From Escherichia phage allfine: DNA of 64,000 nt. The stretch's first letter is position 1, and every line of letters begins with the position of its first letter. The stretch lies in sequence record MN850633.1; one strand, written 5' to 3'. Made by a program: the position numbers and the translations under genes. Below, in pieces: positions 32,200-33,679 of the stretch. The notes below the pieces were generated by a model. It saw only the letters and a list, made by a program, of their open reading frames with translations. It was not told where the DNA came from and ran no database searches.

Positions 32200-32278
32200 T
32201 GGTACTCCATATCGGATTCGAACCGATACATAACACAGATTTTAAGTCTGGCCTCTCTGCCAATTGGAGTAATGGAGC
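32200..32278 (-). tRNA. tRNA, anticodon loop reads UAA (Leu-type) but class-I length
   Basis: T-arm ATCGG-ATTCGAA-CCGAT, acceptor 7 bp, loop CUUAAAA; no long variable arm. Confidence 0.4.
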
Positions 32279-32280
32279 AT

Positions 32281-32356
32281 TGGCGGGGGATGTTGGAATT
32301 GAACCAACTTCTTCGATTTCAAAGACCGAGGTTTTAACCTTGTAAACTAATCCCCT
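32281..32356 (-). tRNA. tRNA-Gln (anticodon UUG)
   Basis: T-arm GTTGG-AATTGAA-CCAAC, loop CUUUGAA. Confidence 0.5.
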
Positions 32357-32364
32357 TTAAATCT

Positions 32365-32922
32365 TTACTTTCTCAGTGGATGAATAAAGAATGCCAACAT
32401 AACTCTTTCCCTTGAGAATGCTCTTTCTTCTGGGACAACACTTTTTAGTTTCCATCCAATATAAATTCTCCAGTAAAATTGTTTACCAAAGATTTTAATT
32501 GATGGGATAAAAGCGAATAATCCCCAAGCATTCCTGTTCCACATTAGGAGATAACCAGTCTGATTATCTTCAGGGTTAGAACTTACGTTGATATTACCTT
32601 TCCACTTAGTAACATCTTTTACATCTCTTCCTAACACATGGTAAGAGAAGTTATAAGCTTTGTTTCTCCAGAGCCATCCAACTCTTTGCATGTAGACACC
32701 TAGTTTACCAATCCATCTAATATTAGCCCATCTTTTAACGTGACCTTCATCACCATCAATTGGGTTGTCATAGGTCTCCATCCATCTGAATCCAAAAGGT
32801 AGATGTCCTTTCTTCTCACTGTAGAATGGAACTACAAAAGGTGCTAAGATAACTGCTAAGATTGCTGCAAATGGCTCTAACAAAGCTAAGAAAATCCATG
32901 AAGCATACTTCAAATATCTCAT
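32365..32922 (-). CDS. membrane protein inside tRNA cluster (185 aa, Trp-rich)
   Basis: ORF in track; N-terminal hydrophobic segment; no recognisable catalytic motif. Confidence 0.45.
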   Translation of the reverse strand: MRYLKYASWIFLALLEPFAAILAVILAPFVVPFYSEKKGHLPFGFRWMETYDNPIDGDEGHVKRWANIRWIGKLGVYMQRVGWLWRNKAYNFSYHVLGRDVKDVTKWKGNINVSSNPEDNQTGYLLMWNRNAWGLFAFIPSIKIFGKQFYWRIYIGWKLKSVVPEERAFSRERVMLAFFIHPLRK

Positions 32923-32941
32923 CTAAATAGCCTCTTTAAAT

Positions 32942-33017
32942 TGGCGCAGGATAAGGGATTCGAACCCCTATTAACAGCTTCGTAGACTGTTGCTCTATCC
33001 ATTTGAACTAATCCTGC
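32942..33017 (-). tRNA. tRNA-Arg (anticodon ACG)
   Basis: T-arm AAGGG-ATTCGAA-CCCCT, acceptor GCAGGAT/ATCCTGC exact, loop CUACGAA. Confidence 0.55.
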
Positions 33018-33022
33018 AAAAT

Positions 33023-33100
33023 TGGTGTTCCAAGACGGATTCGAACCGTCACTAGTACAAGGTTTGAGCTTGCATCCTCTGCCAATTGGGATACTGGAAC
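33023..33100 (-). tRNA. tRNA, anticodon loop reads CAA (Leu-type) but class-I length
   Basis: T-arm GACGG-ATTCGAA-CCGTC, loop CUCAAAC. Confidence 0.4.
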
Positions 33101-33101
33101 A

Positions 33102-33176
33102 TGGTACTCACTAAAGGACTTGAACCTTTTTCTTCATCTTGTAAGGGTGATGTTTTACCATATAAACTAAGCGAGT
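33102..33176 (-). tRNA. tRNA-Val (anticodon UAC), tentative
   Basis: T-arm AAAGG-ACTTGAA-CCTTT, loop CUUACAA, one anticodon-stem mismatch. Confidence 0.45.
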
Positions 33177-33181
33177 ATGAA

Positions 33182-33268
33182 AGAGGTCTGGAGTTGTGCC
33201 GCTAACTCAACTCCGTGGAATTTGTTACGGTCTTCAGTTGACTCAAAGCGGTCTTTCACTTGACCTCT
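33182..33268. ncRNA. tRNA-like element (non-canonical): 7 bp terminal inverted repeat enclosing a 7 bp/11 nt hairpin
   Basis: AGAGGTC at 33182-33188 pairs with GACCTCT at 33262-33268; internal GGAGTTG...CAACTCC; no canonical T-arm; occupies a tRNA-sized slot in the cluster. Confidence 0.25.
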
Positions 33269-33272
33269 GAAT

Positions 33273-33349
33273 TGGTGCTGCTCACAGGACTCGAACCTGC
33301 ATTTCCATCCTTACAAGGGATGTGTAATAGCCAATTATACGAAAGCAGC
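33273..33349 (-). tRNA. tRNA-Thr (anticodon UGU)
   Basis: T-arm ACAGG-ACTCGAA-CCTGC, anticodon stem CATCC/GGATG perfect, loop CUUGUAA. Confidence 0.55.
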
Positions 33350-33355
33350 ATTGTT

Positions 33356-33430
33356 TGGAGCATCCAGAGGGAATCGAACCCTCAACCTCAGTTTGGAAGA
33401 CTGTAATTTTCCCGTTTAAACTATGGATGC
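33356..33430 (-). tRNA. tRNA-Gly (anticodon UCC)
   Basis: T-arm GAGGG-AATCGAA-CCCTC, acceptor GCATCCA/TGGATGC exact, loop CUUCCAA. Confidence 0.55.
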
Positions 33431-33436
33431 ACTAAT

Positions 33437-33512
33437 TGGTGGAGAAGCAGGGAATTGAACCCTGTACTTAAGTTTGCAAAACTTATGTTTTAACCATGTA
33501 AACTACATCCCC
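33437..33512 (-). tRNA. tRNA-Ala (anticodon UGC)
   Basis: T-arm CAGGG-AATTGAA-CCCTG, anticodon stem TAAGT/ACTTA perfect, loop UUUGCAA; acceptor has G3:U70 wobble, the known Ala identity pair. Confidence 0.6.
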
Positions 33513-33518
33513 ATTGTT

Positions 33519-33594
33519 TGGTACAGGTGGAGGGAATTGAACCCATCGTCTTACTGATTAAGAGTCAGCCGCATAACCATTTTGCTACACCTGC
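33519..33594 (-). tRNA. tRNA-Lys (anticodon CUU)
   Basis: Paralog of 34753-34828; loop CUCUUAA. Confidence 0.45.
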
Positions 33595-33601
33595 ATTAAT
33601 T

Positions 33602-33679
33602 TGGTAGGAGACAAGGGATTCGAACCCTCAAACATCTCGTTCTAAGCGAGATAGGTTTACCAATTACCGTCAATCTCCC
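33602..33679 (-). tRNA. tRNA, anticodon loop reads UAG (Leu-type) but class-I length
   Basis: T-arm AAGGG-ATTCGAA-CCCTC, anticodon stem TCTCG/CGAGA perfect, loop CUUAGAA. Confidence 0.4.

Follow-up and report, generated by a model that had tools for sequence, protein, structure and literature searches.

Biochemical studies of Streptomyces coelicolor show that a leucine tRNA can do without the long variable arm. Almost all prokaryotic tRNA-Leu are of type II, and the sole prokaryotic leucyl-tRNA synthetase (LeuRS) known to serve both types is the single enzyme of S. coelicolor (ScoLeuRS), which leucylates a native type I tRNA-Leu(CAA) with the 5-nucleotide (nt) variable loop ACAGC; the shortest workable variable loop has 5 nt including position 48 (Fan et al. 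2019, PMC6614811). That study ruled out any notion that type I tRNA-Leu is undescribed, and it does not mention phages. A tRNA-Leu(UAG) with a short loop, located in a tRNA cluster, is mentioned briefly in a paper on mycobacterial genomics (PMC6582537), and short-arm tRNA-Leu goes unmentioned in reviews on non-canonical tRNAs (PMC7609411) and on how class II tRNAs are distributed. The architecture is known from Streptomyces and from mitochondria, and in the literature searched no discussion of it in phages was found. The DNA considered here is a stretch of 64,000 nt from Escherichia phage allfine (MN850633.1; the window), a Felix O1-like myovirus genome of the genus Felixounavirus, subfamily Ounavirinae. 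The tRNA gene cluster on its minus strand includes three genes with the leucine anticodons UAA, CAA and UAG, which are very probably functional phage leucine tRNAs of type I architecture, with class I length and a variable loop of 5–7 nt.

The three genes had been picked out in an initial annotation by hand folding, and ARAGORN reproduces them on the minus strand with exactly the same ends (Table 1). A parse into canonical segments confirms the anticodon loops, which are all of the standard 7 nt: CTTAAAA in Leu(UAA), CTCAAAC in Leu(CAA) and CTTAGAA in Leu(UAG). The variable loops are GTTATGT (7 nt), ACTAGT (6 nt) and TGTTT (5 nt) in the same order, so that the long variable arm is indeed absent from all three, while the two serine tRNAs and the tyrosine tRNA of the cluster, 93, 90 and 88 nt long by ARAGORN, keep theirs. 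The initial annotation saw two ways out of this conflict: either the anticodons had been assigned wrongly, or the tRNAs are unusual and may carry another amino acid or act in recoding. The first is refuted by the ARAGORN run, which returned the same anticodons. Of the second, the unusual character stands, in the form of a short-arm type I tRNA; the other amino acid and the recoding are not supported, in view of the LeuRS determinants, the leucine-aligned codons and the result with phage OSYSP described below.

For comparison, leuV, leuZ, leuW and leuX of E. coli K-12 were cut into the same segments. Their variable regions have 13–15 nt, and that of the 87-nt type II tRNA-Leu of coliphage T4 has 15 nt. 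A variable arm of at least 10 nt forming a stem-loop, the mark of the canonical type II, is lacking in the window tRNAs, which have the features of type I according to Fan et al. 2019: a leucine anticodon in a 7-nt loop, a stemless variable loop of at least 5 nt and U8-A14. In Leu(UAA) and Leu(CAA) the D arm has the geometry of E. coli tRNA-Leu, with U8, one purine, a 3-bp D stem, an unpaired 13/22 with A22 and a 9-nt D loop, AAUUGGCAG compared with AAU[U/C]GGUAG in the host, so the length of the variable region is the sole architectural difference in this comparison. The D loop reads AATTGGCAG in these two tRNAs and AATTGGTAA in Leu(UAG). Leu(UAA) and Leu(CAA) have an A9/C13 core, and Leu(UAA) has a G1.U72 pair. 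In Leu(UAG) the stretch that joins acceptor stem and D stem is longer by one nucleotide (8–13 region). The homologue in Acinetobacter phage Rocket has the same irregularity, and a 3-nt connector at this point occurs in about 6% of both short-arm and long-arm viral leucine tRNAs.

All three tRNAs cover positions 1–71 of the 71 positions of Rfam model RF00005, for which the gathering score is 29 bits. For Leu(UAG), Rfam chose a register shifted by one that would make the discriminator U; this register was rejected, because that of ARAGORN gives A73 followed by an encoded CCA, as in 23 of the 25 tRNAs of the cluster. Homologues of Leu(UAG) occur in 311 phage records and, together with the RNAalifold cloverleaf described below, they show that the short-arm fold is not due to chance; a wrong anticodon or a mis-fold is ruled out by the agreement of ARAGORN, Rfam and RNAalifold. 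The genes are not recent captures from the host either, since blastn with Leu(UAA) as the query finds no match in 5,426 complete E. coli genomes even at E = 10. Two alleles of Leu(UAG) exist within Felixounavirus, that of the window and that of phage Alf5 (L373, 31–108), which share 89.7% identity. They differ at 8 positions, every one of them in the anticodon stem (TCTCG/CGAGA in the window, CCATC/GTTGG in Alf5) and most of the pairing is kept. The Alf5 stem resembles the CCGTC/GTCGG of T5-like phages, a likeness that suggests modular exchange of anticodon arms between phage families.

For E. coli tRNA-Leu, a review states that A73 is crucial and that A15-U48, G18G19 and A20a are essential, while the anticodon and the long arm are not required and armless variants stay active (PMC9976931). 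The window tRNAs all have A73, U8-A14, A15-U48, G18G19, A20a and the leucine-type 3-bp D stem with an AAUUGGYAR loop. They also share the T loop TTCGAAT with U54, U55, C56 and A58 in place, and a variable loop ending in T at position 48, from which the expected tertiary pairing may be read. The long variable arm is an identity element for the bacterial seryl- and tyrosyl-tRNA synthetases (SerRS, TyrRS). As these enzymes need the arm and LeuRS does not, only the leucine tRNAs are short. In related published phages the genes at the three loci are annotated as tRNA-Leu. The counterparts in Shigella phage Sf14 have leucine as their first tRNAscan-SE isotype (67.4, 49.1 and 60.2) and are classed as 'consistent', in a paper that makes no mention of the variable arm (PMC12482277).

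Class I-length tRNAs that have leucine anticodons and carry threonine (yeast) or alanine (Ashbya) do exist in mitochondria (PMC7609411), and the feature missing from the three window tRNAs is the textbook hallmark of tRNA-Leu. By analogy with mitochondrial tRNA-Thr(UAG) and tRNA-Ala(UAG), the window tRNAs could thus read leucine codons and insert another amino acid, a possibility that the determinants and the codons make most improbable. The reassigned organellar tRNAs are marked by an 8-nt anticodon loop (Thr) or a G3:U70 pair (Ala). Neither is found in the window tRNAs, whose 3:70 pairs are T-A, T-A and G-C, and all three have A73 and the leucine-specific D arm. Among the synthetases that do not depend on the anticodon, the alanyl enzyme (AlaRS) needs G3:U70 and SerRS needs the long arm together with G73, which leaves LeuRS; the E. 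coli synthetases that do read the anticodon use anticodons other than these.

The meaning of the codons was checked in two proteins, the large terminase and the portal, by alignment with their counterparts in Citrobacter phage Michonne, in an Erwinia Kolesnikvirus and in Acinetobacter phage Rocket. Window TTA, TTG and CTA codons fall on leucine at 23/26 positions in Michonne, 29/43 in the Erwinia phage and 21/40 in Rocket, compared with a conservation of non-leucine residues of 0.96, 0.67 and 0.34, that is, broadly at or above background. Where the partner is another residue, it is mostly I, M or V. Of the 29 leucines conserved in the Erwinia phage, 22 have CTG, CTC or CTT as their codon there, all of which host tRNAs read as leucine. 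The alignment with leucine and the interchange with these codons imply that TTA, TTG and CTA mean leucine, and the window is, on these alignments, read by the standard genetic code with no recoding. Recoding would in any case be ambiguous because host tRNA-Leu reads the same codons, and a short-arm phage tRNA-Leu, to judge from the gene content of OSYSP, inserts leucine in E. coli.

As functional leucine tRNAs, the three would be co-transcribed with the other genes of the minus-strand cluster, matured by host enzymes, with CCA already encoded, and charged with leucine by the host LeuRS. From the anticodons and codon counts, UAA is expected to read UUA and UUG, CAA to read UUG, and UAG to read CUA and other CUN codons, so that the tRNAs would top up decoding capacity during infection for the codons in excess in an AT-rich phage. 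Leucine codons were counted in 75 open reading frames (ORFs) of the window and in 12 genes of E. coli K-12. TTA accounts for 30% in the window and 17% in the E. coli sample, CTT for 26% and 10%, and CTA for 12% and 4%. The order is reversed for CTG (13% and 43%) and TTG (12% and 18%), and CTC differs little (7% and 8%). The three anticodons cover codons over-used by the phage, and the major host isoacceptor reads CTG, which the phage under-uses; the pattern fits the usual codon-supply role of phage tRNAs.

Experiments with a swapped genetic code provide insight into the charging of such tRNAs. An anticodon-swapped tRNA-Leu(CGA) of phage MF402939.1, expressed from the E. coli chromosome, decodes TCG as leucine (PMC13596443). 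MF402939.1 is the T5-like phage OSYSP, and a scan of its whole genome finds only two tRNA-Leu genes, UAG and UAA, both 77 nt long with 5-nt variable loops; its Leu(UAG) is 75.7% identical to that of the window over 95% of the length. Because OSYSP has short-arm tRNA-Leu genes only, the phage tRNA-Leu used in the swapped code must be short-arm. Its behaviour implies that short-arm phage tRNA-Leu would be leucylated in E. coli regardless of anticodon and with no phage protein.

Several points weigh against three functional leucine tRNAs charged by the host enzyme. The E. coli LeuRS (EcLeuRS) failed in vitro on the Streptomyces type I tRNA-Leu(CAA) and has been called a type II-only enzyme (PMC6614811), and an arginine in the C-terminal domain of LeuRS has been proposed to contact the long arm (Hu et al., PMC3561953). 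The short-arm nature of the OSYSP tRNA that was used is deduced from the gene content of the genome, and the E. coli codon sample comprises 12 genes only. The D-stem region of Leu(UAG) is irregular and its first pair is G1.U72, and some GenBank records label homologues of this tRNA 'tRNA-OTHER' or pseudo. If the arm contact proposed for LeuRS matters, charging of the phage tRNAs might be less efficient than that of host tRNAs. The phage tRNAs keep U48, and with it A15-U48, whereas the Streptomyces tRNA has C48, and this may explain why EcLeuRS would accept the former and not the latter. Were EcLeuRS strictly limited to type II, a coliphage type I tRNA-Leu would be useless; against this speak the conservation and covariation of the genes, the invariance of A73 and U48, and the OSYSP result, all of which argue for charging.

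The inactivity of EcLeuRS on the Streptomyces tRNA, the pseudo and 'tRNA-OTHER' flags set by some annotators and the degenerate tRNA remnants in the same cluster could also mean that the three are tRNA-like genes that are charged poorly or not at all, either decaying or serving as decoys for host nucleases that target tRNAs. This is very unlikely. Conservation of the genes extends over Felixounavirus, Mooglevirus, Kolesnikvirus and T5-like phages, under strong purifying selection, with compensatory changes in every stem, and even the two Felixounavirus alleles keep most of their pairing through 8 changes in the anticodon stem. A73 and U48, which are relevant only to charging, are essentially invariant, and the A15-U48 that EcLeuRS requires is kept in the phage tRNAs but not in the Streptomyces tRNA with its C48. 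The T5-like short-arm tRNA-Leu, as deduced from gene content, also works in translation in vivo.

Short-arm leucine tRNAs are not confined to this phage group. Short leucine tRNAs of 77–79 nt stand beside long serine and tyrosine tRNAs in Mooglevirus, Kolesnikvirus, the T5-like Tequintavirus and Epseptimavirus, and Acinetobacter phages. Those of Kolesnikvirus include a short Leu(AAG). IMG/VR was scanned with a pattern combining a leucine-type D loop (AATTGG required), a leucine anticodon and a T loop, with either a short or a long distance from anticodon to T loop, and each version found at least 120 loci. Among the matches listed, to which all viral counts given here refer, ARAGORN finds 138 unique leucine tRNAs with variable loops of 5–8 nt in 108 loci. 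Of these tRNAs, 138/138 have A73 and 137/138 have U48, neither being imposed by the pattern, and the long-arm viral tRNA-Leu have both in 154/154. All six leucine anticodons occur in the short-arm set, serine and tyrosine tRNAs stay long in the same loci, and the shortest variable loops have 5 nt, where 4 nt would have been accepted. Short-arm tRNA-Leu(AAG) occurs ten times in this set, and a further case of 78 nt is found in Erwinia phage vEam_PM_27 (L003, 7534–7611); A34 is unusual for bacterial-type leucine tRNAs.

The viral sequences also bear the marks of a maintained structure. The 20 stem positions are each 94–100% paired with 4–6 types of pair, except for G53-C61, which is fixed by the pattern. 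RNAalifold on 43 short-arm tRNA-Leu gives a class I cloverleaf with compensatory changes at 19/20 pairs and no variable stem. The core differs with arm length: A9 is found in 60/127 short-arm and 2/144 long-arm tRNAs, C13 in 48/127 and 1/144, and position 44 is mostly a purine in the former and mostly a pyrimidine in the latter. This co-variation suggests a stable, re-optimised design rather than a recent deletion.

A scan of bacterial and archaeal contigs, one genome per species, finds the short pattern at no fewer than 120 loci. Segment parsing of the matches listed gives 84 single chromosomal short tRNA-Leu genes, mostly in Actinomycetota (Nocardia, Rhodococcus, Gordonia, Mycobacterium, Corynebacterium, Arthrobacter, Bifidobacterium and Rothia), and another 38 in dense tRNA arrays; the idea that the short arm is specific to phages is ruled out by these 84 singletons. 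The chromosomal genes listed have 5-nt loops, A73 in 84/84, U48 in 84/84 and usually no encoded CCA. Their anticodons in Actinomycetota are UAA, CAA and UAG. The D-arm signature TA-GCC-C-AATTGGCAG-A agrees in its A9/C13/C20 pattern with Leu(UAA) and Leu(CAA) of the window. Type I tRNA-Leu thus appears to be far commoner in bacteria than its 'rare' status in 2019 implied.

Selection may have a part in the loss of the arm in phages. In E. coli tRNA-Tyr, the variable arm is where the defence systems Retron-Eco7 and Septu cut, and the tRNA-Tyr of T5 resists through a different variable loop. Short-arm tRNA-Leu is frequent in viral contigs and in mobile-looking tRNA arrays, and arm loss goes together with the changes at positions 9 and 13 noted above. 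As an addition to the reading as functional leucine tRNAs, it could be supposed that the arm was lost to dodge arm-cutting nucleases or mischarging by SerRS. However, we know of no defence system that cuts the arm of tRNA-Leu, and the Gifsy-1 terminase cuts in the anticodon region and not in the arm. T4 and many viral contigs keep type II tRNA-Leu, and 33 of the 108 short-arm viral loci also carry a long-arm tRNA-Leu. Ordinary chromosomal type I tRNA-Leu in Actinomycetota means that no phage-specific rationale is needed. The adaptive explanation is plausible but rather unlikely. A wider proposal would see a coherent short-arm architecture (A9/C13, purine 44) that is widespread in phages and mobile arrays, native to Actinomycetota and accepted by EcLeuRS, with arm loss in phages selected by arm-cutting nucleases; taken as a whole, this can be put forward only tentatively and is rather doubtful.

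Across the whole of region 31000–36000, identity to Escherichia phages AYO145A and momo is 97%, and 314 phage records match this region. Phage REP12 has the same gene order in the cluster and a Leu(UAG) 100% identical to that of the window. It infects the recoded strain Syn61-delta-3 by expressing its own viral tRNA-Ser(UGA) (PMC13596443), which indicates that the cluster is functional in this near-identical phage. The features of the window are collected in Table 1.

Table 1. Positions of the tRNA genes, neighbouring elements and other features in the window
Feature	Position	Strand	Remarks
tRNA gene cluster	31005..35918	(-)	25 tRNAs (ARAGORN), 19 amino acids
Type I (short-arm) tRNA-Leu(UAA)	32200..32278	(-)	79 nt including CCA; ARAGORN; Rfam 47.5 bits
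Type I tRNA-Leu(CAA)	33023..33100	(-)	78 nt including CCA; ARAGORN; Rfam 43.6 bits
Type I tRNA-Leu(UAG)	33602..33679	(-)	78 nt including CCA; ARAGORN; Rfam 44.5 bits
tRNA-Ser(GCU)	31085..31177	(-)	93 nt, long variable arm kept; ARAGORN; internal control
tRNA-Ser(UGA)	33936..34025	(-)	90 nt, long variable arm kept; ARAGORN; internal control
tRNA-Tyr(GUA)	35340..35427	(-)	88 nt, long variable arm kept; ARAGORN; internal control
Two sigma-70-like matches, candidate cluster promoters	35945..36065	(-)	consensus match only; just upstream of first tRNA
ORF inside cluster	31178..31929	(-)	putative membrane protein by annotation of relatives
ORF inside cluster	32357..32941	(-)	annotated hypothetical protein
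tRNA-like element	34268..34346	(-)	Rfam 31.7 bits; no ARAGORN call
Degenerate tRNA-like sequence	34039..34126	(-)	long acceptor-like stem; 9-nt loop containing CCA (Trp-like)
Orphan T arm (GAAGG TTCGATT CCTTC)	35030..35060	(-)	no matching tRNA body
Repeated motif ACAGAAGACC(G/A)..TACAGCAA	33228, 35100, 35187, 35574, 35740	(-)	inter-tRNA spacers
Val-Thr spacer	33177..33272		folds unusually well, z = -3.8
NAPRTase-family protein beside PRPP-synthetase-like protein	61240..63949	(-)	looks like NAD salvage module
Macro-domain protein; tandem immunoglobulin-like domain protein	52973..53758; 39578..40462	(-); (+)	

The two candidate promoters read TTGACA-17-TAATAT and TTGACA-18-TAAAGT. The number of promoter sites in the region is not above that expected from shuffling (12 compared with 11.3), which leaves the boundaries of the transcription unit tentative. 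Besides its tRNAs, the cluster holds two small ORFs and degenerate tRNA-like remnants. The hypothetical-protein ORF resembles genes of T4-like phages of Klebsiella, Enterobacter and Yersinia, at about 70% nucleotide similarity; one of these genes carries a holin annotation.

Of the remnants, the tRNA-like element with an Rfam score combines the anticodon arm of an Arg(UCU) tRNA with a well-formed T arm, and its acceptor stem shows G3.U70, A73 and CCA; the D arm is replaced by 7 nt, and 23 nt lie between the anticodon and T arms. Its counterpart is 'tRNA-OTHER' in REP12 and a normal 76-nt tRNA-Arg(TCT) at the same position in Mooglevirus Michonne, and the element is probably a degenerate gene. 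ARAGORN calls the Trp-like sequence only at a relaxed threshold, as 'tRNA-???', and with no proper tRNA-Trp the cluster covers 19 amino acids. The orphan T arm sits in a 429-nt gap between Lys(UUU) and Asp and looks like the remnant of a lost tRNA. At least four spacers begin, at their 5' end, with the repeated motif and carry a complementary GGTCTGG at their 3' end, and a count of CAGAAGACCG that tolerates one mismatch gives 11 in the window where about 2 are expected. Folding z-scores of the inter-tRNA spacer elements are mostly weak. The spacer motifs may act as processing signals or as phage promoters, or may be what is left of lost tRNAs.

For the window itself, the outcome is that there is no recoding and that the tRNA-Leu annotation of related genomes is correct. 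More generally, the textbook rule that puts leucine tRNAs in class II does not hold in many phages, in bacterial tRNA arrays or on Actinomycetota chromosomes, and a short tRNA-Leu should not be taken by annotators or hand-folders as an error or a pseudogene. A discrepancy is also exposed, since EcLeuRS is reported to be inactive on the Streptomyces type I tRNA and yet coliphages depend on type I tRNA-Leu; if the enzyme does accept the armless tRNA-Leu of coliphages, the published type II-only view of it is contradicted. The nucleotides that make an armless tRNA-Leu acceptable to EcLeuRS, for which A15-U48 is the obvious candidate, would refine the rules of leucine identity and be useful in the synthetic-biology applications that already employ these phage tRNAs.

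The three leucine tRNAs do not represent a new kind of system; they correct a textbook generalisation and bring out the EcLeuRS discrepancy, which can be tested. Their direct homologues are the short-arm tRNA-Leu of T5-like phages (OSYSP, VEc33 and TrudiRoth). The Leu(UAG) of OSYSP shares with that of the window the T arm GAGGG TTCGAAT CCCTT, the loop CTTAGAA, a 5-nt variable loop, A73 and CCA; it differs in coming from a siphovirus of the Demerecviridae and in a regular D-arm geometry with no extra nucleotide. The swapped-code work on the T5-like 'viral tRNA-Leu(YGA)' does not comment on the missing arm. The tRNA-Leu(CAA) of S. coelicolor resembles the window tRNAs in its leucine anticodon, short armless loop, U8-A14 and coexistence with type II tRNAs, and neither the window tRNAs (5, 6 and 7 nt) nor the viral matches listed go below its 5-nt minimum. 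Unlike them it is cell-encoded and has C48, and A73 is no determinant for ScoLeuRS. EcLeuRS does not charge it in vitro, whereas the window tRNAs must work with the LeuRS of E. coli or Salmonella. The short-arm tRNA-Leu of Actinomycetota and of tRNA arrays show the signature TA-NNN-C-AATTGGCAG-A of Leu(UAA) and Leu(CAA), 5-nt loops ending in U48 and A73; the Actinomycetota chromosomal ones, unlike those of the window, are GC-rich single cellular genes, mostly with no encoded CCA. Animal mitochondrial type I tRNAs, such as human mt-tRNA-Leu(UUR), likewise have a short variable loop and leucine identity through A73 and A14, but they are organellar and floppy, are served by a dedicated mitochondrial LeuRS and have no sequence relationship to the window tRNAs. 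The type II tRNA-Leu of E. coli (leuQPV, leuZ, leuW and leuX) and T4 share with the window A73, U8, A14, A15-U48, G18G19, the 3-bp D stem, a non-Watson-Crick 13/22 pair, the AAUYGGYAR D loop and the anticodon set. They differ in their stemmed arm of 13–15 nt, in G9 and G/A13 in place of the A9 and C13 of Leu(UAA) and Leu(CAA), and in an anticodon loop with U32 and G37 or modified A37, where the window tRNAs have C32 and A37.

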